Assembly (NCBI GenBank): GCA_964360835.1 | Contig: CAYHYG010000005.1 | Coordinates: 1-46,398, forward strand | Length of the DNA: 46,398 nt | Direction of reading: 5' to 3' | Source of the DNA: an uncultured Gammaproteobacteria bacterium | GTDB lineage: Bacteria > Patescibacteriota > Patescibacteriia > UBA1558 > 2-01-FULL-52-15 | Shown here: positions 564 through 22,935 of the stretch, piece after piece | Layout: every line of letters starts with the position of its first letter | Numbering within the stretch: position 1 is the first letter of the stretch | Notes under the pieces: generated by a model | Told to the model about the DNA's origin: nothing | Databases searched by the model: none | The model's input: only the letters and a program-made list of their open reading frames with translations | Made by a program: the position numbers and the translations under genes

Positions 564-2390
564 ATGCATACTTCAGAAGACGAAATAAAGAAGGTATCCT
601 TACAATCCTCCCGACAAGTCATATCGAATATGCGACGTTTGGGTGGTATTATTTGGCAGGATCGACGATCAGTGGTGGTGGCTATAACTACGATCGCTGT
701 TTTAGTTTCATTTTTTACTTTCATCCAGGCAGGCGTACGAGGTTGGTTGATAAATGAGTTGATAGCTCTCAGCGGCTCGCGACTTATTACTCAGCAAATA
801 ATACTGGCCATGCTACTGACGATTATTGCCAGTATTGTGCCATCAGTCCTATATACGGCTTGGGGTTATTATGGCAAGATTTTTTATTATTTTTTGGAAG
901 AGAAGTTTGAGCTGTTAATCATACGCAAACGTGCTGATCTGGATATGGCTGTTCTCGAGGATCCAAAAAACAATGATTTGTTACAGAAAATTTCCGAAGG
1001 TGGTGTCTGGAGAATTCAGAATTTTGTCGACCGTCAATTTTACTTATTACAAAATATCATTGAGGTCATCATAGCTGCTGGAGTCTTGATCTTTGCCGAG
1101 TGGTGGATTTTCCTGATCATTTTCATTAGCACCTTACCTGAGCTGATCGTAGAACTCAAGTACAGTGACACAGTTTGGACTATACATACCAGCCGGGCAG
1201 AAGTACGTAGAAAGTTTTGGGAGTATCGTTATCATTTGCAGCGACTATCTGCTTTGACCGAGTTAAAATTATTTCAGAACGTTAATCATTTCATACGGAT
1301 GATTAGCGATTTATTTCGTGGCTTTCACAAGGAAGAATTTGCCAATGAGAAGCGCAAGGTCGTCCTTAGTTTTGGTTCTCTAGTTATATCTCAGATAGCG
1401 CAAGCTTTTGTCATTATTTGGTTTGTCTGGCAGGTTATCCAAGGAAACTTACTTATCGGTACGTTGACCTTTTTTCTGGCTTCTATCCAAAATTTACGTC
1501 AGGCTTTATCGGGGTTGCTACAAAATCTGGGGCGACAATATCAAGATAGTTTGTTCGTCACTGATCTTTTCAAATTTTTGGACCTGCAACCGAGATTAGA
1601 TAAGGCAAAGAAAAGTCACAGGTTGACTATCAATAAGGCTCCAGAAATCCGTTTTGATCAAGTGACCTTCCGGTATCCGGACACTGATACAGATGTGTTG
1701 AAAAAAATATCCCTGACAATCAACCCAGGGGAAAAATTAGCCATTATCGGAATCAATGGAGCGGGCAAATCCACTATGATTAAATTACTTTGTCGTTTTT
1801 ATGACCCGACTGAAGGTAGAATCTTGATCGATGGCGTTGATTTGAAGAAGATAGATTTAGAATCATGGTATACCAATCTGGGAGTTATCTTTCAGGAGTA
1901 TTCAAATTACAGTTTGACGGTCAAAGATTTAATAGCTTTGGGTCGTAGTTCCAAACCATTGAAAATATCCAGCGTCAAAGAAGCGGCTGTCTCTAGCGAA
2001 TCAAATACCTTCATCGAACAATGGAAGGATAAGTATGATCAATTTTTGGGCAAACAATTCACTGGAGGTATCGAGCCGTCAGTTGGTCAGTGGCAAAAAC
2101 TGGCGCTGTCTAGGATGTTCTATCGGGATCCTTTTGTCATTATTTTGGATGAACCCACCTCATCTATTGACGCCGAGGCAGAAGCCAAGATTTTTGAACG
2201 ACTAGAAGCCATGCCGGATGACCGCACTGTCATTCTGATTTCTCATCGCTTTTCCACTGTACGTCAAGCCAGCCGTATCGTGGTGCTAGAGGGAGGTGGC
2301 ATAGCAGAGCTTGGTACTCATGAGGAGCTTCTGGTCAAGAATGGTCTCTATGCGCGTTTATTTACTTTGCAGGCTAAAGGATACCGTTAG
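564..2390 (+). CDS. ABC exporter, fused permease/ATPase
   Basis: N-terminal TM helices; Walker A GINGAGKST, signature variant PSVGQWQK, Walker B IILDEPTS, H-loop ISHR. Confidence 0.93.
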   Translation: MHTSEDEIKKVSLQSSRQVISNMRRLGGIIWQDRRSVVVAITTIAVLVSFFTFIQAGVRGWLINELIALSGSRLITQQIILAMLLTIIASIVPSVLYTAWGYYGKIFYYFLEEKFELLIIRKRADLDMAVLEDPKNNDLLQKISEGGVWRIQNFVDRQFYLLQNIIEVIIAAGVLIFAEWWIFLIIFISTLPELIVELKYSDTVWTIHTSRAEVRRKFWEYRYHLQRLSALTELKLFQNVNHFIRMISDLFRGFHKEEFANEKRKVVLSFGSLVISQIAQAFVIIWFVWQVIQGNLLIGTLTFFLASIQNLRQALSGLLQNLGRQYQDSLFVTDLFKFLDLQPRLDKAKKSHRLTINKAPEIRFDQVTFRYPDTDTDVLKKISLTINPGEKLAIIGINGAGKSTMIKLLCRFYDPTEGRILIDGVDLKKIDLESWYTNLGVIFQEYSNYSLTVKDLIALGRSSKPLKISSVKEAAVSSESNTFIEQWKDKYDQFLGKQFTGGIEPSVGQWQKLALSRMFYRDPFVIILDEPTSSIDAEAEAKIFERLEAMPDDRTVILISHRFSTVRQASRIVVLEGGGIAELGTHEELLVKNGLYARLFTLQAKGYR

Positions 2391-9945: not shown

Positions 9946-10035
<90 letters not shown>

Positions 10036-10103
10036 TCCTTCGCTCGCAAGGCGAGCTACGGATGGCACTGCCACTAATGTGCGAGAGTTATAATGCTCAA
10101 CAC

Positions 10104-10514
10104 ATGAAAATATATTTTGCCGGTTCCATCAGAGGCGGTAGACAGGATCAAGGTTCATATCTGGAGATAATAACTCTTCTAGATTCTTATGGTCAGGTCC
10201 TGACAGAACACTTAGCTGATCCCGCACTCTCAAGCTACGGCGAAACTCACTTGAGCAACGAAGAAATTTATCAGCGTGATGTTGACTGGGTATTGGAAGC
10301 CGACTTAGTCATTGCTGAGGTAACGCAAACGAGTTTAGGTGTTGGCTACGAGCTTGGGTTAGCTGAAGCAGCCAAAAAAAGAATCATTTGTCTCTATCGA
10401 CCACAGCCCGACAAACGATTATCAGCAATGATTGCCGGTAACAAAAATCTAACGGTAATAGAGTATCAGACGGTAGAAGAATTACGGCCAAAATTGAAAG
10501 AAGTTTTGGGATAA
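10104..10514 (+). CDS. Nucleoside 2-deoxyribosyltransferase / DNPH1(Rcl)-like N-glycosidase
   Basis: MKIYFAGSIRGGR, VLTEH, IYQRD, SLGVGYELG, LSAMIAG. Confidence 0.9.
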   Translation: MKIYFAGSIRGGRQDQGSYLEIITLLDSYGQVLTEHLADPALSSYGETHLSNEEIYQRDVDWVLEADLVIAEVTQTSLGVGYELGLAEAAKKRIICLYRPQPDKRLSAMIAGNKNLTVIEYQTVEELRPKLKEVLG

Positions 10515-10519
10515 TACAT

Positions 10520-10605
10520 GGAGAGTTGGCAGAGTGGTCTAATGCGACGGTCTTGAAAACCGTTGTGCGAAAGCACCGGGGGTTCGAATCCCTCACTCTC
10601 CGCCA
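10520..10605 (+). tRNA. tRNA-Ser(TGA)
   Basis: ACGGT-CTTGAAA-ACCGT, variable arm, CCA. Confidence 0.97.
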
Positions 10606-10693
10606 GAGCACAATATGAATGCTGCCGAAGGCAGCTATACAAAGAGACGATGTCCTGAGCGACCACGTCAAACGTGGGAGTCGAGCGACACAG
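10606..10693 (+). repeat. tRNA trailer repeat copy
   Basis: First 33 nt identical to 289-321; TGTCCTGAGCG...GTCGAGCGACA core with a CCACGTCAAACGTGG hairpin nested inside. Confidence 0.85.
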
Positions 10694-10705
10694 TAAGTAA
10701 TATGC

Positions 10706-10790
10706 GGGCACGTGGTGAAATTGGTATACACGTACGCTTCAGGTGCGTATGGAGCAATCCGTGAGAGTTCGAGTCTCTCCGTGCCCACCA
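10706..10790 (+). tRNA. tRNA-Leu(CAG)
   Basis: TACGC-TTCAGGT-GCGTA, variable arm, CCA. Confidence 0.96.
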
Positions 10791-10860: not shown

Positions 10861-11391
10861 ATGAATTTTGAACAACTAAAATCCGAGAAAGAACTAGCCT
10901 GGGAAGCAAAAAAGGAAGAGGTTGATCATATAGTAGATGGTCTGGGTTTAGGGATCGATGAAAAAATAAAGGAACCAGTTACCTCACTTTTGGCTCACGA
11001 ATTTCCTACCAATGCTTCATGCGAAGGTCATATAGCTGAGGAGAATGAAGGTCGCGGGTTACCATATCCTTGGGTTGAAATTTATGCTCCCGAACCAGAC
11101 GGCTGGGAGAAGAGCGAAGAGAAGCAGCAAGAGTGGACCGCAGAAAACTTAAAACAAAGAGCTAGAATGTCAGATTTTTTAGATGAGTTCTATAGCCAGG
11201 CAGAAAATCCTGATGAGGCGCAATTGACTTTGGAAGATAAAGGTATTTATGGAGCATTTCGTTTGCGTAGTTTTGGAGCAGACGCAGCTGAATCACTGGA
11301 TATTGAAGCCAGAAAGAAGAAATTAGAATTATACAGGGCGGAAATGAATAATTTTTCTCAATTTATGAAAAAGAAATATTTCACGGAATAA
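10861..11391 (+). CDS. Hypothetical acidic protein with T-x-x-SCEGH motif
   Basis: 176-aa ORF, GLGIDEKIKEPV...PTNASCEGH; followed by bidirectional hairpin around 11414-11439. Confidence 0.75.
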   Translation: MNFEQLKSEKELAWEAKKEEVDHIVDGLGLGIDEKIKEPVTSLLAHEFPTNASCEGHIAEENEGRGLPYPWVEIYAPEPDGWEKSEEKQQEWTAENLKQRARMSDFLDEFYSQAENPDEAQLTLEDKGIYGAFRLRSFGADAAESLDIEARKKKLELYRAEMNNFSQFMKKKYFTE

Positions 11392-11701: not shown

Positions 11702-12177
11702 AGTCTGATTGTAGTGCATTGCGCGGATGATGTAAATTGATTCAAAGGTAGAATGTATAAGGTATAAAATATGAACTAGTTACTTCGATAGAGAGTTTAT
11801 TCCTGCGGGCCGTCCTGTTATATTCTCATTGGCACTGGCACTATGAGACAGTCTAAAACAATGATTGACCGAGAGTACGCTCCCGTGAAAGAGTTTAGCG
11901 ATTTGTTTTACTGGGATCGGTTTGACCCAACACCAGAGTAAGGCCTATAATGTTCTTAAAGATAGTTTGCAGCTAGCTTACCCTAGAATATGTCCTTGTT
12001 AAATCTCAAAAAAGATGTTACAAATCGCCTACAAACATTGATGACGTGGGTACTTAATCGGGAGGCACCTCAAGGACTTTTTTGCGCTGATAGAGGCAAG
12101 GGTGTATTACTGACATATAACCAAATTTAAGAAAAGGTACCTGATCCCTTTTATGATTTGGAATATAAACAAAAACA

Positions 12178-12789
12178 ATGTCGTTTGAAGAGTATAAAAG
12201 AAATACGAGGGACACTCACTTGAATCCTCAGGAGGGAAAGAAGAGTGCAGAGACTCTTGAATTATTGCTGGAAAAGTACAAGGATCGAAGAGTGTTAGTT
12301 CTCGCATCGCCGACTGTTGGGAAAAGTACAATTTTACAACATATCAAAGATGGAGTTGACCTAGATGTAGTATTTGATGATATGCCGGATGAGTTTAAGA
12401 GACGAGTACTGCACCACGAAAACCCGTTCATGTTTATCGATGGAGATAAGCAGACTTTAAAATATACCGAAAAGGAGTTTAACCCAACAGATGATAGTCA
12501 CCAAATTTACCTTAGGGAAACAACCGAACTACTCACAAAGTATACTCAGGATAAAGTAAATATCGAAGCAGGTCATCCAGTTTTTGGTAGTATGCTTGTA
12601 GATTCTGATGTGGTAATTTATCTCAAGGTTTCTGAAGAGGAACTTAAAAAGAGAATTGATTCGCGGAATATGAACACCCATCGACTCGCTCAGCTTGATC
12701 GAGTAAAGGCGATAAAGAATAATCTCGAAGCTGATTTGGAAAGACTGAAATTAGTGGGTAAGATAGTTGTGGAATTAGAAATCTCTTAA
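12178..12789 (+). CDS. P-loop nucleoside/nucleotide kinase-like protein
   Basis: VLVLASPTVGKST Walker A variant; IYLKVSEEELKKRIDSR resembles the NMP-kinase lid region. Confidence 0.75.
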   Translation: MSFEEYKRNTRDTHLNPQEGKKSAETLELLLEKYKDRRVLVLASPTVGKSTILQHIKDGVDLDVVFDDMPDEFKRRVLHHENPFMFIDGDKQTLKYTEKEFNPTDDSHQIYLRETTELLTKYTQDKVNIEAGHPVFGSMLVDSDVVIYLKVSEEELKKRIDSRNMNTHRLAQLDRVKAIKNNLEADLERLKLVGKIVVELEIS

Positions 12790-12813
12790 ACTATCCATAA
12801 TAAGAGTAAGTAT

Positions 12814-13356
12814 ATGAAAATGAAGAAAAAAATAGTCTTCTTCGATGGCGATGGAACGCTTTGGTATCCCATGGCTACAAAACGAACTCAAAAACCTCAC
12901 TGGATTTATCATGACCCAGAGACAAAAGATAACTATCTTGAGCATTTGGAGTTGACACCACGGACCAAAGAAACCCTAGAGACCCTGAAGAAAAACGGAA
13001 TATATCTCGTAGTACTCTCAGCCAACCCTTATGCTGAAGAAGTTGCTGTCAAAGAAATTAAAGAAAGGCTTGAGTACTTTGGGCTAGGTGGCCTGTTTTA
13101 TGCCCAAAGATCCTCAAGTGGAGATGATCCGAATGGGAAGGCGTCAATCATGCTAGAGATTCTAGCTTCCTTAGGTCTTAGTAAGGAGGATGCACTTATG
13201 GTTGGGGATAGTTATTTTTATGACTATCTAGCAGCAAAAAGTATCGGAATAGAGGCTTTTTTTATAGAAAATAGTGTTTCAAAAATGCCAGAAAAGATTC
13301 CAAGGGATCTCAGGTCAATTAAGGAGATTCACGAGTTACTTGATATACTGGCTTGA
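12814..13356 (+). CDS. HAD-family phosphatase
   Basis: Motif I FFDGDGTLW, II VLSAN, III K (GKAS), IV MVGDSYFYD. Confidence 0.9.
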   Translation: MKMKKKIVFFDGDGTLWYPMATKRTQKPHWIYHDPETKDNYLEHLELTPRTKETLETLKKNGIYLVVLSANPYAEEVAVKEIKERLEYFGLGGLFYAQRSSSGDDPNGKASIMLEILASLGLSKEDALMVGDSYFYDYLAAKSIGIEAFFIENSVSKMPEKIPRDLRSIKEIHELLDILA

Positions 13357-16300
13357 TGTTTTTTATGAATGTACTTAGTGCAAAAGATAAAATTTCCCAA
13401 TTTAATCAGAAAGGTGACGCTAGTATACTGGTAAGCTTACTTAGTACTCACAATCTTGATATAAAGAATACCGTACGTTTTATCAACGCATATGTTGATA
13501 GAAAATTTTTGAAGTCACTTATATTTCAACCGTTGAAAGTTAACGAAAAATGCTTGGTGTTTATTAACTCTTCTCTTGAGATTGAGGTGATAAAAACGGA
13601 TATCATCAGTCTAAAAAAAATTTTGAATCAGATCAAACTATACGATAAGGAGAATCACCAAGGTGGGGTTTCCAGTATTACCTTAAGATCTATATTGCTT
13701 TCGATAGCAAAGTCGGAGCTGAAGTCTTATGACGTTTTTACGAACCTTGACACTTATGACATAGACAAGGTTACCTTACGAAGATGCCTCAATGATGAGA
13801 GGAATTGGGTCATCGAGAGAGCTCAGACTCACAACATACTCATACGTCAATGTTATAAAAGCGTCGAGACTTTATCGCAAAAAATGTTAGGGTCAAAGGA
13901 ATTAGGAAGAGGGATCTACTGCGTGCGAGGATCTGTTGCTTCTGGGAAATCTTCATTTATCGAGCGTACTCTCCATCAAAACATAAAGACGTTGAAAACA
14001 TTTGATCGTGTATTAAATACCGATACCGTAAAAAGACAGCTTATTTTAAACACTTCAAATGTCATGGGGCAAGCACTTTCTGGATACCTCTTTCATGAGG
14101 AGGCGTCCATTATTGGCGATAAAATCCTCAAACTTATTAGGAAATCTAATTTAGGGTATGTCATCGACAAGAGAATGCATGACGCTGCGGATCTAGATGA
14201 ATTATTAGCCGATGCTACTCAGAGAAAGTTGTTCGCTACTATATTTGACTTGAAGGTTGATTTCATAACCTCGGCATTACGAGTACTTGAACGAACGGGA
14301 ATATACCCGAGTGATCCCACTCCAGATTTTTCGACTTTATATAAAAGTTATAGGACGATCGAAGATGGTCGCTTATCTTTTTTTGAAAAATCAATTGGTT
14401 CGAAATGGGTAAAAAATTATTCGACCGTTCTAATGAATAGCAATGGGCATCCGGTTGTTACTAGTCTTAAAAGGAACTACAAAGTTAACAGGAAAAATAT
14501 AGCGCGGGAGTCTGAAGCTCGATATATAGCAAGCGCTGAAAGTTTAAAAGGCACGGTCCTTTCTAATCAGGAGACGCTTAAATCTTCCCTTGATACGCAT
14601 TCTCGCAGAAGCTATACACCATTTTTTTCTAAGGAGAAGTACTTACATAAGCTCCTGCGTAATATCGAAAACACAAGTAGAACATTTAGCGGGGAATTAA
14701 ATGTTTCTGCATCAAAAGACAAGCCCTTGCTGGTTAACCTATTTATGCCAAAGCGCTGTCTCGCTGATACTACGAGAAATAATGTAATCCAGGCTTTTAA
14801 CTTTGTGTATGATAATAAGAATTTGCTATTACTATCACCCCAGGTACTTCAAGAGTTTATCGATCAGATTGCAATGATGGTCAATCAAGGTATTGTAACT
14901 GACGAAAAGTTAATATTAAGAGGTGGCAGCAATTCACAAAAATACTTTTATGTTGATACGCGGTATTTAAAGAGGTTTTACAATTCATTTGTTAACCAGC
15001 TATACGAGAAGATAAATAGCCCAAAAAATAACCCGGTAGATTTAGCCGCCTGGATTGAATGGAATATTGATTTCTGCGGGCATATTTTTGTTGATGGCTG
15101 TGGCAGAGTCGCAAAGATTTTGAGTACTTGGTTGTTGATGAGAAATAATAGTGATTTGCCTAATTATTGCAATGGTCAGGATGGTTTTGAGTCTGTTCGG
15201 GAATCATATCGAAAAAGATTCGCGCTTGAATCCAAAGTGAAACTTCGGGTTCCAACGGACACGAAAAAATTCCATGCTTTTTTGTCATACTACGGGAGAC
15301 TTTTTGACCCCAAAGAGACTTATAAAGTTCTTGCCTCAGGTGGTTTAGTTTATAATTCAACAGGACAATTTTTAATACTCCAGACGAGTAAGGGTAAAGA
15401 TTATGGTAAATGGGTTATACCTGGTGGCAAGCTGGGTATAAATGAAACTCCAATTGAAGCCTTTGTACGCGAGATTTTTGAGGAAACTGGCCTCACAGTT
15501 AGTCATATTAGTCTTTTGGGATTACGCGACTATACGGCAAAAAGTGGTAATCACTATCATTTTTACGACTATACATCGATTGTCGTAGAGGATAAGCGAA
15601 TAAGAATCAATGGAGAATCAATTACTTTTAAGTGGATTACGAGAGATCAAATATCAAGTTTTAAATTCACGGACTCGATAGCAAACTTTATCAGTAAGTA
15701 CTTTGTATTCGGACATCCAGAAATATATAGCAAGGTAATCATGGTCCCAGAAAAGAACCTTGATGTTCCTTACCAGGACGATCATACGATGACCATTTCA
15801 CTGGAAAAATACATACAATCTAAACTACCTGTAGAAATGATAAAAAGCAGAATCAAAGAGATAGACAGAGTTGAAGTTCATGGTATATACCCAGACCTCA
15901 AGATTCTAAACGAACTCACGTTAAGATTTAATATCACAGAGGTAATTCATTTTAGTAAGCAGAAGGCTGACAATAGTAACAGTCTGCGACCTATGTTCTT
16001 AGTAGCCGAGAGCGATTCAAAAAAAATTTTAGTTTGCTGCGTTACTCCGGGCAGAGATTTACTGATTCATTATGCTTCCATGCTAAAGTATTATCTAAGA
16101 GATTTGCTAATTCCCGTAAGGGCGTACGCGTATCCGTTAGCTGAAAAAAGTATCGATAAATGGACAGGCCTAGATGACAAAATTATTATCAAGCATGACG
16201 TAGTGATACTTGGCTACAGTACATTCTTGAAAAATCAATTTGAAAAAGACTCCGACTTTTCTACACTGAGTACCTATCAAAATAAGTATTATTCATCTAC

Positions 16301-16892
16301 TAGATTTATTACTAAGAGTGGCAAGGTCATAAATTGTCTTGAAGCAAACTACGGTCACTGGGGTAATATAAGTGACTTTTTGGCGCAGAAAATATGTCAG
16401 TTACATGCAGCCGAAGTTTTACATATAGGGAAGGTCGGCGCCTTAAAGTCCCCAAACGAAGTATATACAAGAATATACATACCTAAGTCATTTGTCATAG
16501 GAAGACGGAATGAGATTATGAGTATAGGTTCTAGAATAAGTAATTCTATGGAGTATATTAAGGAATACTCTTCCTTAGCTCACGTTTCCATATCCACAAC
16601 AATGGAAGAAACATTTGCCCAACGTGAAAAGTTCTCTAAAAAAAAGATTGACACTGTAGACATCGAATCTTCAAAAATTGCCCGAGCAGTTGCTCTGTAT
16701 AATTTAGCTAATAAAACCAAAGTAAAGTTCGGAGCGATACATTTTTCTTCGGATTATTTGAAGAAGTTTGGAGAAGATAATCAGAGAGCAGGTGTTGACT
16801 TATCAACCGATAGAGAGAATTTAAGACACAAAAAGCATAGTATTCTGGTTGAAATATATTTTATAATAAAAAAACATATTTTAGAAAAATGA
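13356..16892 (+). CDS. Multidomain protein: zeta-toxin-like P-loop kinase + Fic + Nudix + PNP/nucleosidase-like
   Basis: GSVASGKS...NTDTVK...HEEAS (zeta-like); HIFVDGCGRVAK (Fic variant, 15081); G-KLGIN-E-TPIEAFV-REIFEETGL (exact Nudix box); HIGKVGAL...VDIESSKIARAV...IHFSSDY (PNP/UDP-like); TGATG overlap with the HAD gene. Confidence 0.8.
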   Translation: MFFMNVLSAKDKISQFNQKGDASILVSLLSTHNLDIKNTVRFINAYVDRKFLKSLIFQPLKVNEKCLVFINSSLEIEVIKTDIISLKKILNQIKLYDKENHQGGVSSITLRSILLSIAKSELKSYDVFTNLDTYDIDKVTLRRCLNDERNWVIERAQTHNILIRQCYKSVETLSQKMLGSKELGRGIYCVRGSVASGKSSFIERTLHQNIKTLKTFDRVLNTDTVKRQLILNTSNVMGQALSGYLFHEEASIIGDKILKLIRKSNLGYVIDKRMHDAADLDELLADATQRKLFATIFDLKVDFITSALRVLERTGIYPSDPTPDFSTLYKSYRTIEDGRLSFFEKSIGSKWVKNYSTVLMNSNGHPVVTSLKRNYKVNRKNIARESEARYIASAESLKGTVLSNQETLKSSLDTHSRRSYTPFFSKEKYLHKLLRNIENTSRTFSGELNVSASKDKPLLVNLFMPKRCLADTTRNNVIQAFNFVYDNKNLLLLSPQVLQEFIDQIAMMVNQGIVTDEKLILRGGSNSQKYFYVDTRYLKRFYNSFVNQLYEKINSPKNNPVDLAAWIEWNIDFCGHIFVDGCGRVAKILSTWLLMRNNSDLPNYCNGQDGFESVRESYRKRFALESKVKLRVPTDTKKFHAFLSYYGRLFDPKETYKVLASGGLVYNSTGQFLILQTSKGKDYGKWVIPGGKLGINETPIEAFVREIFEETGLTVSHISLLGLRDYTAKSGNHYHFYDYTSIVVEDKRIRINGESITFKWITRDQISSFKFTDSIANFISKYFVFGHPEIYSKVIMVPEKNLDVPYQDDHTMTISLEKYIQSKLPVEMIKSRIKEIDRVEVHGIYPDLKILNELTLRFNITEVIHFSKQKADNSNSLRPMFLVAESDSKKILVCCVTPGRDLLIHYASMLKYYLRDLLIPVRAYAYPLAEKSIDKWTGLDDKIIIKHDVVILGYSTFLKNQFEKDSDFSTLSTYQNKYYSSTRFITKSGKVINCLEANYGHWGNISDFLAQKICQLHAAEVLHIGKVGALKSPNEVYTRIYIPKSFVIGRRNEIMSIGSRISNSMEYIKEYSSLAHVSISTTMEETFAQREKFSKKKIDTVDIESSKIARAVALYNLANKTKVKFGAIHFSSDYLKKFGEDNQRAGVDLSTDRENLRHKKHSILVEIYFIIKKHILEK

Positions 16893-17124
16893 TCAGTCGT
16901 AATTGAGTAGGTAGGTTTCCTGGGTTTTCTAATAAAGTATTTTTTGGGACAGTATTATGTCTCAAGTTGCAAAAATGTGACAAGGTCTGCATTGTGTCTC
17001 ATTTTGTCTTCAAAACCGCGTCTTGACCTCTTTAATTGAGCTCACGCCTATACCCTGCCTGTTAAAGGTAGGTGAGAGAAGAGAAGGTTGCTTCTTTTTT
17101 CCGTACTCGCTAAACTACGCCCAT

Positions 17125-18912
17125 ATGACACCCATAGAAGAAATAAAGTCCCATCTGGATATTGTCGAGGTTATCAAGGATTACATACCCCTGAAACAAG
17201 CCGGGACCAATTGGAAAGCCAATTGTCCTTTTCATCAGGAGAAATCTCCTTCTTTTATGGTGTCCAAGGATAAGCAGATCTGGCACTGTTTTGGCTGTCA
17301 TGAAGGCGGGGACGTTATCTCCTTTGTGCAAAAGATTGAAGGATTGAGCTTTGGCGAGACACTAGGCCATCTGGCGCTGAAGGCTGGAGTGACCTTGAGT
17401 CAGATGCCACAGGATTACTCCAGTGGCGACAAAGATAATTTACGTAAATTAAATCAGCTAGCTCAGGATGTCTGGCAGAAACAATTATGGACCGACACTG
17501 CGGAAGCCAAGAAGACTTTGGCTTACCTAAAAAAGCGCGGTCTCGAGGACTCGACGGTTAAGGATTGGAACCTTGGCTTATCTGCCAATGAATGGGAAGG
17601 GTTGTCCCATTTATTACTAGAAAAATATTCTCGTTCATCGGTCACCACTTCTGGCCTGGTTATAGAAAAGGAAGGCAAAATTTTTGATCGTTTCCGTCGG
17701 CGTCTGATGTTTCCTATTGCGGATATTCAGGGTACTGTCGTAGCCTTCACAGCTCGGACGCTCCAAGGCATTGCCTATGATGAGGAAGATATTGGTGGCA
17801 AATACGTAAATTCGCCGCAGACAGCGCTCTACAATAAGAGTTCAGTTTTGTATGGTTTACATTTTGCCAAGCAAGAAATTCGTCGCCTGGATTATGTCAT
17901 AGTGGTCGAGGGCAATCTTGACGTCATCATGTCGCATCAGGCCGGCGTCAAGAATGTGGTGGCAGTGTCGGGCACGGCGTTGACCGCTGATCAGCTGAGA
18001 TTATTGAAACGTTTTACCAATAATATTGTATTAGCTTTTGACGCCGATCAAGCAGGTTCGCAGGCGATCTACAAAAGCGGACTGGTGACGGCCGGACAAT
18101 TTGATATGAACGTCAAAGTTTTGCTTTTGTCCGGCGCCAAAGACCCAGCCGAGATAGTTCAGCATGATCCGGAGGAGTGGAAAGCCATATTGAAGGAGAC
18201 AATTCCTTTGGCAGACTTTTATTACCAGGAAATATTGAAACGGGTACATCTCAGTCGGGCTGACCACAAGAAAATTGCGGCCAATAAAATATTGCAGATC
18301 ATTGTGGCCTTGGGAAATTCTATCGAGCAGGATCATTACGTGCAAAAGCTAGCCGCCGATTTGCAGATCTCAGTCCAGTTGCTGTGGAAGCAGCTGGAGT
18401 CACTGCAGCAGCAAACACCGGCGCCCGCAGCAATTGAACCAACATCAGATCAGTCCGGACGCCAAGATCCCTTCGCCATCTGGACCGAAGCATTGCTGGC
18501 TTTGCTGGCTAGACAGTCTGAGTATCTACCGCGGATTATCGATGCCGTGGAGCCGGAGCACATTCACGAAAGTTACCAGCCCCTTTACAAACAAATAATT
18601 ATTCATTATACTAAGGAACAATCGACTGACCTGCAAAGCCTTGTAACATATTTAGACTCTGAACAAGCTCATCTCTGGAGCTCAGTAGTCCATCGGGCCG
18701 AATTGCAATATCAGTCTCTAAGTGAGAAGGAACTCGAACGTGAGTTTCATAATTTACATAAGCGTATTAGAATGCGCTGGTTGAAGGAGCGTATGCACGG
18801 TATTACGCAGAGCATGGAATCAGCCGAGCTGGCCGGGGACCAAGAGTCGTTATCCCGCCTGACTTTGGAATTCAATGAGCTGAGTAAACAGCTGTCGCTA
18901 CTCCTTTCATAA
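17125..18912 (+). CDS. dnaG: DNA primase
   Basis: CPFHQEKSPSF..WHCFGC zinc finger, DRFRRRLMFPI, KYVNSP, Toprim VVEGNLD and FDADQAG. Confidence 0.97.
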   Translation: MTPIEEIKSHLDIVEVIKDYIPLKQAGTNWKANCPFHQEKSPSFMVSKDKQIWHCFGCHEGGDVISFVQKIEGLSFGETLGHLALKAGVTLSQMPQDYSSGDKDNLRKLNQLAQDVWQKQLWTDTAEAKKTLAYLKKRGLEDSTVKDWNLGLSANEWEGLSHLLLEKYSRSSVTTSGLVIEKEGKIFDRFRRRLMFPIADIQGTVVAFTARTLQGIAYDEEDIGGKYVNSPQTALYNKSSVLYGLHFAKQEIRRLDYVIVVEGNLDVIMSHQAGVKNVVAVSGTALTADQLRLLKRFTNNIVLAFDADQAGSQAIYKSGLVTAGQFDMNVKVLLLSGAKDPAEIVQHDPEEWKAILKETIPLADFYYQEILKRVHLSRADHKKIAANKILQIIVALGNSIEQDHYVQKLAADLQISVQLLWKQLESLQQQTPAPAAIEPTSDQSGRQDPFAIWTEALLALLARQSEYLPRIIDAVEPEHIHESYQPLYKQIIIHYTKEQSTDLQSLVTYLDSEQAHLWSSVVHRAELQYQSLSEKELEREFHNLHKRIRMRWLKERMHGITQSMESAELAGDQESLSRLTLEFNELSKQLSLLLS

Positions 18913-22061: not shown

Positions 22062-22935
22062 TGGATGCTTTGATAACAGTTAGACGCTTAGGTAGAACCT
22101 CGATTGAAAGTTGTGAGCCAGTGGCTACAATATAATCACCATCAATCTGCGGTAGACCGAGCCCTTTCATTTCAATCGAAAATTTACTACCTTCGGTCAC
22201 CAGCAGGTGACGCGCAGGTTTATGATGAAAGTAGTAATAATAAAAAGCTGGAAATAAGGACCAAAAGTTTTTGTTGGTGACGACAGTCAGCTCAAATTTG
22301 CCATCACTGAGATCATGCTTGCGTTTGGTGCGTAGGCTAAAGAGGCGAGAAGTGTTGACGATAAATAAACTATGTCCGGAAATATCGTATTGTTGACCAT
22401 CAACCGTAAAGTGAAAATGTAGCTGTCGTATCTTCCGATGGAGGAAAAATGATAGCAAGTAACCGAAGAAGCCAAAATAGGTTTTCATACGGCTATCGGC
22501 AGCGATAATACGCTCAGCCACATAGCCTAGAGCGAAGGCATCCAGGAAGTAATATTTACCGTTGATCAAACCGACGTCAATTTTTAATTTTTGTCCTGTA
22601 TGAATGAGACGTAATGCTTGGTGAATATTGCGCGGCAAGCCCAGACTTTGGGCTAGCATATTAGCCGAGCCGATAGGTACTACGGCCAAAGGGATGTCGT
22701 GCTTATCATTTAGTAAGAAGGTAGCAACTTCTCTAATGGTACCGTCGCCACCGGCTACAATAATCGTTTCATAATTCCATTCACGTTCAATCTTTTTTTC
22801 GCGTTTAAAATACTCATGAGTCATGAATTCTAGATTGTAACGTTGACGAGGAAACTCTTTTTTTATTAATCGTGTCAATCGACGATGACGACGACGGCCT
22901 GCGATGGGATTGTATATGACGAGTATTTTTTTCAT
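22054..22935 (-). CDS. Soluble diacylglycerol/lipid kinase (DagK/YegS family)
   Basis: IYNPIAG, VAGGDGTIREV, PIGSANMLA, QIDGD. Confidence 0.92.
   Translation of the reverse strand: MKKILVIYNPIAGRRRHRRLTRLIKKEFPRQRYNLEFMTHEYFKREKKIEREWNYETIIVAGGDGTIREVATFLLNDKHDIPLAVVPIGSANMLAQSLGLPRNIHQALRLIHTGQKLKIDVGLINGKYYFLDAFALGYVAERIIAADSRMKTYFGFFGYLLSFFLHRKIRQLHFHFTVDGQQYDISGHSLFIVNTSRLFSLRTKRKHDLSDGKFELTVVTNKNFWSLFPAFYYYYFHHKPARHLLVTEGSKFSIEMKGLGLPQIDGDYIVATGSQLSIEVLPKRLTVIKASNE

Follow-up and report, generated by a model that had tools for sequence, protein, structure and literature searches.

A low-GC three-gene cassette combining AvrRxo1-like kinase, Fic-like, Nudix and predicted NP-I domains: a candidate nucleotide-targeting conflict system in a member of the Patescibacteriota

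The type III effector AvrRxo1 of Xanthomonas oryzae pv. oryzicola is also the toxin of a toxin-antitoxin pair (PMC4938570). It transfers a phosphate from ATP to the adenosine 3'-OH of nicotinamide adenine dinucleotide (NAD) or its nicotinic acid analogue (NAAD), giving 3'-NADP and 3'-NAADP, is bacteriostatic in E. coli and is inhibited by a small binding partner (PMC5087710, PMC5491322, PMC4938570). In Parcubacteria and Saccharimonas, Triplett et al. (2016; PMC4938570) described longer AvrRxo1-like proteins whose C-terminal part is a Fic/Doc domain, and speculatively tied these genes to a symbiotic lifestyle. Here we describe a three-gene cassette in a 46,398-nt stretch of DNA, referred to as the window (contig CAYHYG010000005.1 of assembly GCA_964360835.1, positions 1 to 46,398), from an uncultured bacterium deposited as a gammaproteobacterium and placed by GTDB in the Patescibacteriota (Patescibacteriia; UBA1558; 2-01-FULL-52-15). 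On the forward strand, three co-oriented open reading frames (ORFs) between 12178 and 16892 encode a small P-loop kinase, a HAD phosphatase and a multidomain protein of 1179 residues, the large protein in the following, whose kinase domain resembles AvrRxo1. Our tentative interpretation, held at somewhat less than even confidence, is that these genes form a horizontally acquired, self-contained conflict cassette of the toxin or abortive-infection type, which would act on NAD or a related adenine nucleotide.

A preliminary description of the locus, made from the sequence alone, had read a zeta-toxin-like P-loop into the large protein, and profile searches bear this out as an AvrRxo1-type zeta kinase. 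The domain matches the NCBIfam model XopAJ/AvrRxo1 (NF041405) at E 1.7e-24, and comparison of its profile with PDB entry 4z8q (AvrRxo1-ORF1) gave E-values of 7e-17 and 1.2e-13 over ~225-260 residues. The Walker A motif GSVASGKS (residues 193-200, nt 13929-13952) corresponds in the alignment to RGNTATGKT of 4z8q, and its G193, A196, G198 and K199 do not vary among 31 sequences. Asp224 (nt 14022-14024), likewise invariant, aligns with 4z8q chain residue 105, which corresponds to D193 of AvrRxo1 (offset 88), the catalytic residue whose replacement in D193N/T abolishes activity and toxicity (PMC5087710, PMC5491322). Judged from its sequence, the domain is a distant AvrRxo1 relative that falls outside the curated NF041405 subfamily. 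AvrRxo1:Arc1 is the closest named system, with the kinase domain aligned and both Walker A and catalytic Asp kept; the likeness extends to a GC content below that of variable flanks, as reported for avrRxo1, and to the Fic-type domain C-terminal to the kinase in the candidate-phyla homologues (both PMC4938570). Unlike AvrRxo1:Arc1, the cassette adds Nudix and NP-I domains, stands in no type III secretion context, and has as its obligatory partners a kinase and a HAD phosphatase that are encoded upstream rather than downstream.

The epsilon/zeta and PezAT systems, whose toxins are UDP-N-acetylglucosamine 3'-kinases, belong to the same P-loop kinase superfamily, and among the direct homologues found for the large protein, 3 of 37 match the Pfam Zeta_toxin model, as do 16 of 23 scanned carriers of the related kinase+Fic or Fic-like module described below. 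The large protein itself (P0003), in contrast, has no Zeta_toxin match at E<=0.1, there is no PezT or zeta chain among the PDB matches of the kinase profile at E<=1, and no epsilon or PezA antitoxin was found.

The core motif of Fic proteins has the consensus HxFx(D/E)GN(G/K)R. The large protein carries HIFVDGCGR at residues 577-585 (nt 15081-15107), with H, F, D, G, C and R invariant in 31 sequences; Cys takes the place of Asn throughout these 31, as it does in 23 more remote carriers of the module, in which the His, Asp, Gly and Cys of this motif and an upstream S-R-T...G...K pattern are invariant. In the large protein this second conserved motif reads TSRTxxG...SASxDK and lies at residues 441-457. 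An AlphaFold2 (AF2) model of the region reached a mean predicted local distance difference test score (pLDDT) of 76.3, and every Foldseek row listed for it is a Fic protein (probability 0.89-1.00), led by FICD (6i7l) at E 2.7e-3, with no row at E<=1e-3 and TM scores of 0.36-0.49. The top two profile matches in PDB were Fic proteins as well (E 0.32 and 1.1), and Pfam PF02661 scored 14.9 bits (E 0.05), under its gathering score of 24 bits. The model thus predicts a Fic fold for residues ~401-655, in agreement with the Fic-like motif noted at the outset, with Cys replacing Asn.

The exact Nudix box GX5EX7REUXEEXGU, noted in the preliminary description, was recovered by regular expression at residues 692-714 (nt 15426-15494), and the domain is matched by Pfam PF00293 (E 1.8e-16, 60.8 bits against a cut-off of 21.1), PDB entry 3grn (9.8e-9) and the PADLOC model PDC-S07 (2e-11).

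For the C-terminal module, a nucleoside phosphorylase- or nucleosidase-like identity had been proposed, and the structural comparisons agree with it. An AF2 model (pLDDT 64.9) gave 58 Foldseek matches at E<=1e-3, led by purine nucleoside phosphorylase (PNP) and uridine phosphorylase (UP); the rows listed comprise PNP, UP, MTIP phosphorylase, AMP nucleosidase and one protein of unknown function. VIA-align placed model residues 137-384 on PNP 1odi and UP 4lnh with a Z-score of 10.8, and Z-scores ranged from 10.8 to 9.0 across PNP, UP, methylthioadenosine nucleosidase (MTAN) and AMP nucleosidase. The module has no Pfam, NCBIfam or meaningful PDB sequence match (best PDB E 0.46); PNP_UDP_1 (PF01048) did not match the large protein at E<=0.1 and was missed in the whole-genome scan too. 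E. coli PNP and MTAN have a ribose-binding motif of (E)ME type and a catalytic Ser-Asp motif; the invariant D1103-I-E1105 and S-D1134-Y of the large protein are candidates for these by their position. The NP-I assignment is one of fold and, with related folds scoring nearly as high, is good though not beyond doubt. PNP-type NP-I domains that cleave ATP serve as immune effectors in Detocs (DtcC) and CBASS (Cap17), and the cassette resembles these in being mobile and in carrying its NP-I-fold domain at the protein C-terminus. It differs from them in giving no PNP_UDP_1 or PADLOC match over that region, in lacking a receiver domain or cyclic-nucleotide sensor, and in having an extra sub-domain at 796-931.

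In 31 full-length homologues (42-84% identity), each of the five enzymatic domain types keeps its catalytic motifs with little or no variation. With 37 homologues of the large protein (identity down to 41%) and 47 homologous clusters of the small kinase, the cassette genes are real and not chance ORFs. The earlier count of six nucleotide-handling domains in the cassette is fair, with two further conserved parts to be added: the large protein contains six conserved parts, of which residues 1-143 and ~796-931 have no known fold. Residues 1-143 have no Pfam or NCBIfam family and no usable Atlas match, and they accompany the kinase in giant proteins, where matches begin at profile positions 13-29. 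Neither the Pfam nor the NCBIfam scan placed a secretion or trafficking domain in the large protein, which lacks the N-terminal trafficking or secretion domain of a polymorphic toxin layout, and a PHROGs scan of the cassette returned Nudix and HAD families only.

The phosphatase encoded by gene 2 is the most conserved of the three proteins, with a mean column identity of 89% in eight sequences. The HAD call of the preliminary description is confirmed: Pfam Hydrolase (PF00702, E 4.3e-14, 53.8 bits against a cut-off of 26.4) and HAD_2 (9.4e-12) both lie above their cut-offs, the NCBIfam HAD-IIIA and HAD-IIIC domain models and a PADLOC HAD model (6.4e-5) match, and all four HAD motifs are intact (DGDGT 11-15, Ser69, Lys109 and GDSxxD 131-137) and invariant in the eight sequences. 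Sequence comparison with PDB returned generic HAD hydrolases only. Its coupling to gene 3 is close, as had been pointed out for the gene overlap: at GGCTTGATGTTT the HAD stop codon TGA (13354-13356) overlaps an ATG (13356-13358), with an in-frame TTG at 13353. At the related locus L021 and in 3 of 37 database homologues (P0037-P0039), HAD and large protein form one polypeptide, with the HAD domain at its N-terminal end. A complex prediction for HAD with residues 1-400 of the large protein scored 0.00 in both runs, which had no controls and count neither way.

Gene 1 is predicted from its sequence to encode a P-loop small-molecule kinase. Its Walker A motif, ASPTVGKS at residues 43-50, fits [AG]x4GK[ST], and this motif and 66 columns are invariant in an alignment of nine sequences; the 47 homologous clusters (56-98% identity) were all close ones. 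Family assignments are weak, with Pfam dNK (1.5e-5) and AAA_18 (6.6e-5) under cut-off, weak NCBIfam matches to adenylate-kinase and dephospho-CoA-kinase models, PADLOC matches to VakA (1.9e-6; a term that was not found among the literature matches listed) and PDC-M51B (7.7e-4), and nearest Atlas clusters of PRK/uridine kinase, AAA_33 and CoaE type at 0.93-0.94. The best PDB match of the gene 1 profile was the methyltransferase-like 1ve3 (E 1.6e-5, residues 13-102), with the P-loop strand lying on methyltransferase motif I. A methyltransferase-like identity was set aside because the Walker A motif fits and the C-terminal half matches dNK and adenylate kinase lid regions; the resemblance, of a beta-strand and Gly-loop to a P-loop, was treated as a chance one and is probably convergent.

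The cassette is a discrete ~5.3-kb low-GC insertion. In a collinear region of a genome of the same family (G006), RecG, tRNA-Arg, a 175-aa gene, two tRNA-Ser, an 88-aa membrane-protein gene and DnaG follow one another without the cassette, the empty site measuring ~95 nt against 5.3 kb in the window, and none of six relatives carries the cassette upstream of dnaG. Since positions 11730-11774 match the G006 region beside the homologue of P0005 (84% over 45 nt), the insertion starts after ~11775. The GC content of the 12-17 kb block is 35-38%, compared to 42-48% in most other 1-kb windows, so that the picture first drawn of three co-oriented genes in an AT-rich block between a tRNA cluster and dnaG agrees with ORFs, composition and neighbors alike. 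Neither flanking direct or inverted repeats that would mark attachment sites nor an integrase were found. A prophage or plasmid fragment was ruled out, the insertion being without phage or plasmid genes, and a core housekeeping operon was ruled out by the patchy distribution and the empty site.

The distribution is patchy. No match to the large protein beyond its Nudix region was found in the 40 genomes compared from the same family or order. Across 401 genomes of the phylum, its N-terminal half was matched in three, the full architecture only in the source genome (G000), and the C-terminal module in G000 alone. The two partial N-half relatives among the 400 further genomes are a Fic protein in G340 and, in G372, a stand-alone AvrRxo1-like kinase of 523 aa with a low-complexity N-terminus (L024, G372:C6, 1165-2736), which shares 25% identity with residues 50-366 of the large protein and has no kinase or HAD partner genes. 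With its empty site, lower GC content and absence from all 40 relatives, the cassette behaves as accessory, laterally moving DNA.

This distribution also bears on the possibility that the genes form an accessory metabolic cassette for the salvage or catabolism of scavenged NAD, nucleotides and nucleosides in an auxotrophic ultrasmall bacterium, with its domains serving as kinase, nucleotidase, pyrophosphatase and nucleosidase/phosphorylase. Such a role, which we consider less likely but a serious rival, would fit the facts that all six recognizable domains belong to families with housekeeping nucleotide enzymes, that no antitoxin, sensor or delivery domain was found, and that G000, at 97.6% completeness, has no canonical PNP_UDP_1 gene, an activity that the NP-I domain could supply. 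However, the cassette was found neither in the 40 relatives nor in any other of the 400 phylum genomes sampled, organisms with the same lifestyle and auxotrophies, and because 32 of the 40 relatives also lack PNP_UDP_1, the cassette fills no obvious gap peculiar to G000, which moreover retains a canonical NAD kinase. The low-GC insertion and the mobile-element neighbors at other loci further speak against a metabolic role, as does the finding that, among solved structures, the kinase comes closest to a toxin and not to a metabolic kinase.

Ten related loci, three from species-representative genomes and seven from metagenome contigs, were compared with the window. The three-gene synteny is conserved: the order kinase, HAD, large gene is kept at all eight loci with enough upstream DNA, and the HAD gene is present at all nine informative ones, L022 starting inside the large gene. 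The GC content of the cassette lies 3-13 points under that of its flanks at nine of the ten loci, the tenth having a flank of only 203 nt. The flanks vary between loci, and four are of mobile-element or defense type: a serine recombinase and an HNH nuclease at L013, a Schlafen AlbA_2/PDC-S19 protein (E 5.6e-28) at L015, TraG/VirD4-like and VirB4-like ATPases at L020, and AbiEii at L021. Others are a histidine kinase at L016 and RecG and an aminotransferase at L014. The preliminary description had suggested a check for proximity to defense islands; flanks of mobile-element or defense type are present at these four loci, and those of the window are housekeeping genes. Cassette proteins of the window and L014 are 66-81% identical whereas their RecG proteins share 40%, which fits a transfer of the cassette more recent than the split of the hosts, although strong constraint on these sequences could contribute. 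At L022 (52-2107), three separate ORFs that abut at the domain borders encode the Fic-containing part, the Nudix domain and the C-terminal module, and the frame of the large gene is broken near the C-terminus, in the region of the NP-I domain, at L016 (8356-8679) and L018 (5831-6178); natural splitting, decay of the gene and errors in sequencing are all conceivable causes.

A profile search of 1.84 billion representative sequences, which returned 236 matches below 1e-30 (the best 150 analyzed as 50%-identity clusters, with E-values to ~1e-43), resolved the large protein into two modules that occur in other proteins: kinase+Fic (~13-650) and C-terminal (~788-1175). The kinase+Fic module, or its Fic-like part alone (~420-650), forms the extreme C-terminus of proteins of 1099-2607 aa and is found in proteins of 225-870 aa as well. 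Besides Zeta_toxin, the 23 scanned carriers contain cNMP-binding (two), Csx3 (two) and WXG100-like (one) domains. In the two Csx3 proteins (P0171 and P0185, ~730 aa), the Fic-like module follows immediately after the Csx3 domain, and such proteins could be an accessory effector of type III CRISPR signaling. The placement of the kinase+Fic module appears to resemble that of toxin tips and signal-controlled immune effectors, and these toxin-like positions also argue against a metabolic role for the cassette.

The same observations bring into view an effector that an episymbiont would export, perhaps through a type IV system, and that would poison the nucleotide pool of its partner, with HAD and the small kinase protecting the producer. 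AvrRxo1 is an injected effector too, and the symbiosis speculation of Triplett et al. concerns the AvrRxo1-like genes of Parcubacteria and Saccharimonas (PMC4938570); the kinase+Fic pair is the C-terminal tip of giant proteins, one of them with a WXG100-like domain, and the L020 cassette adjoins its two ATPase genes. We nevertheless regard export as improbable. The 1179-aa protein gave no match to a secretion or trafficking domain, its residues 1-143 are part of the kinase module and not of a delivery domain, type IV secretion genes are adjacent at one of six long-flank loci (window, L013, L014, L015, L020 and L021), and three extra catabolic domains would be an unusual cargo.

The C-terminal module, in turn, is mostly a stand-alone protein of ~400-450 aa, a form far commoner than its occurrence in the large-protein architecture; ~100 of the best 150 clusters match this module alone. 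Single carriers combine it with DUF4062, a GFO/IDH oxidoreductase, or PAS plus LuxR domains. A relative with 26% identity heads a four-gene operon on the Klebsiella pneumoniae IncFIB plasmid NZ_CP055107.1 (L032, 7037-10523), together with genes for a DMT transporter, a NUDIX protein and a DegT/DnrJ aminotransferase, flanked by insertion sequence elements and toxin-antitoxin genes. The pairing of Nudix and NP-I module thus recurs there as separate genes, and their position beside a transporter and an aminotransferase is a further point for a metabolic role. On a related plasmid, AP014952.1, a truncated copy of this relative is annotated as an RHS core protein.

Contexts of this kind would also suit the biosynthesis of a small-molecule product, a modified nucleoside or nucleotide acting for instance as antimetabolite or signal, through kinase, Fic-type transferase, Nudix, nucleosidase and phosphatase steps. 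Writer and eraser activities are together in the cassette and strictly co-inherited, and members of the C-terminal module family are found beside a sugar aminotransferase and a transporter or joined to terpene-cyclase-like toroids, in surroundings of natural-product-tailoring type. Against this, the cassette has no transporter, scaffold-forming enzyme or resistance gene, and the kinase+Fic pair behaves as a toxin tip elsewhere, making a biosynthetic function very unlikely in our view.

How far the architecture is new was judged against the literature. The AvrRxo1+Fic pairing is not, having been in print since 2016 (PMC4938570), whereas the addition of Nudix and NP-I domains was not found in open-access full text; the same holds for the obligatory kinase and HAD partners, the invariant Cys of the Fic motif and the C-terminal module as a family. 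Searches of open-access full text for zeta toxin, Nudix, Fic and nucleoside phosphorylase in one architecture, and for a link between AvrRxo1 and Nudix, found neither, and among the papers listed in a further search none paired AvrRxo1 with a candidate-phyla term. The novelty claimed in the preliminary description must therefore be narrowed to the latter additions. Polyvalent proteins of phages and conjugative elements, which include zeta-like kinase domains among their parts (Iyer et al. 2017, PMC5512222), resemble the large protein in that a single polypeptide, encoded on horizontally moving DNA, unites several enzymatic effector domains of unrelated kinds; the Fic/Nudix/NP-I combination does not appear in that paper, in which Fic and nucleoside phosphorylase are absent as terms and Nudix occurs once, in another context.

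Several observations weigh against interpreting the locus as a conflict cassette. Every domain family of the cassette also has ordinary metabolic members; 15 of 41 carriers of the C-terminal module are fused to an N-terminal squalene-hopene-cyclase-like alpha/alpha toroid, and the Klebsiella plasmid operon looks biosynthetic or metabolic rather than defensive. The flanks in the window are housekeeping genes (tRNAs, RecG, DnaG, RpoD), and, unlike polyvalent proteins, the cassette was not found in phage records or IMG/VR contigs, nor its kinase-Fic half in plasmids. PADLOC-DB v2.0.0 matched no system and gave weak matches to single domains, in line with the earlier remark that the architecture belongs to no named system, and no sensor domain was recognized in the cassette proteins. 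The AvrRxo1 relationship also has its limits: the Arc1/AvrRxo2 motif KExFD...[YL]ExxYY is absent from a six-frame scan of the window and the ten loci, so that no Arc1-like antitoxin was detected, and the NF041405 score of 86.6 bits is far below the 300-bit family cut-off, which makes NAD as the kinase substrate an extrapolation. Finally, both fold models are moderate in quality, with pLDDT values of 65 and 76, and the PbaA and peptidyl-tRNA hydrolase folds reach Z-scores of 9.4-9.5 on the C-terminal module. We favor a conflict function because distribution, insertion and module behavior all point that way, and retain the three rival explanations because of the missing sensor, antitoxin and system-level match and because of the Klebsiella operon. 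The candidate new nucleotide-targeting system originally proposed is in this sense partly supported, by its domains, gene linkage and accessory mobile DNA, with the metabolic look of the plasmid operon standing against it.

If the locus is a conflict cassette, its enzymes could act in sequence on one nucleotide. The AvrRxo1-type kinase domain would 3'-phosphorylate the adenosine ribose of NAD or a related nucleotide, yielding an unusable or inhibitory analogue, and the Nudix and NP-I domains, fused in cis, would cut the pyrophosphate and N-glycosidic bonds, so that the nucleotide would be demolished and not just masked. The Cys-variant Fic domain may be a second effector, transferring a nucleotidyl or phosphoryl group to a target, or a regulatory switch. 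The two smaller enzymes, translationally coupled to the large gene in this model, would set the phosphorylation state of substrate or product: HAD most plausibly as an enzymatic antidote or reset that removes the phosphate added by the toxin kinase, or alternatively by taking off a 5'-phosphate and so completing the breakdown, and the small kinase by adjusting a precursor or product. As no Arc1-type motif was found, control of the large protein, if it is toxic, would have to come from HAD, from the small kinase or from within the protein itself. We infer this writer/eraser logic, as we do NAD as the substrate, toxicity, any trigger and the roles of HAD, small kinase and Fic domain. A more specific version, and an unlikely one as it stands, is a write/erase toxin-antidote or immune module in which the kinase makes 3'-phospho-NAD, HAD reverses this during normal growth, the Nudix domain and a nucleosidase of a hitherto unrecognized NP-I-like family destroy the nucleotide irreversibly once triggered, and Fic serves as a switch or second warhead.

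The features of the cassette are collected in Table 1.

Table 1 Features of the three-gene cassette, with nucleotide positions in the window and residue numbers of the large protein.
Feature	Position	Strand	Remarks
5' non-coding part of the insertion	11775-12177	+	holds best promoter-like site
Gene 1, small P-loop kinase (predicted)	12178-12789	+	203 aa
Gene 2, HAD phosphatase	12814-13356	+	180 aa
Gene 3, multidomain (large) protein	13353/13356-16892	+	1179 aa; start TTG 13353 or ATG 13356
Conserved N-terminal extension of kinase module	residues 1-143, nt 13353-13781	+	fold unassigned
AvrRxo1-type zeta kinase (distant relative, by sequence)	residues 144-400, nt 13782-14552	+	NCBIfam, PDB profile
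Predicted Fic-fold domain	residues ~401-655, nt 14553-15317	+	AF2 + Foldseek
Nudix hydrolase	residues 656-795, nt 15318-15737	+	Pfam, PDB, regular expression
Two-part C-terminal module	residues 796-1179, nt 15738-16889	+	AF2 + Foldseek, VIA-align
Conserved alpha/beta sub-domain, fold unassigned	residues ~796-931	+	invariant motifs DHTM, RP, PGxD..HY, YPxAE
Predicted NP-I (PNP/UDP-like) fold	residues ~932-1179	+	VDIESS 1102-1107, HFSSDY 1130-1135
3' cassette element, two GAGACA/TGTCTC-type palindromes then T-run	16941-17015	+	blastn, alignment

The best promoter-like site, TTGACC-18-TATAAT at 11922-11951, scores 11/12 as a match to the consensus, and no convincing terminator was found inside the three-gene block. 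The 3' element (~75 nt) lies directly downstream of the large gene at L014 and L015 as well, with blastn identities of 78% to L015 (13556-13623) and 73% to L014 (13545-17), and is present in three of eight aligned loci; it is probably a terminator and could also be a protein-binding site. Between the large gene and dnaG there is no ORF. The DnaG ORF as listed (17023-18912) starts at TTG 17023, and its relatives align only from residue 21-39 onward, so that the true start codon probably lies 60-110 nt beyond 17023, with more than 130 nt then separating cassette and dnaG. A sigma-70 factor gene follows. On the 5' side lie RecG, tRNA-Arg, two tRNA-Ser, tRNA-Leu (tRNA-Ser, tRNA-Ser and tRNA-Leu spanning 9946-10790) and two small family-less ORFs, and an Rfam scan of 9-18 kb returned tRNAs only. 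A 176-aa acidic ORF at 10861-11391 (+) has no match in Pfam, NCBIfam, PADLOC or PHROGs and no counterpart in the otherwise collinear G006 region (L028, 7433-7993); it is possibly another gene gained in this lineage next to the tRNA cluster. The canonical NAD kinase (PF01513, above cut-off) is encoded by a 299-aa ORF ~6 kb downstream of the cassette (~22594-22788, minus strand). Ten DNA sequencing runs contain the sequence; where labeled, they are groundwater metagenomes, and no RNA run is among those listed.

To our knowledge, few defense or toxin systems have been characterized in ultrasmall candidate-phyla bacteria, and the NAD-pool warfare that we know of so far relies on NADases, TIR and SIR2 among them. 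A defined subgroup of Fic domains, marked by the motif HxFxDGCG(K/R), is almost always paired with a zeta-type kinase, and the ~385-aa C-terminal module, with its predicted NP-I fold, is a widespread family without a Pfam or NCBIfam name. Should the write/erase mechanism hold true, the cassette would represent a reversible toxin system in the style of DarT/DarG that acts on NAD rather than on DNA, and it would give a function to this widespread uncharacterized family. More generally, a conflict role of the cassette, if confirmed, would add a kinase-based route to NAD-pool warfare in ultrasmall candidate-phyla bacteria.

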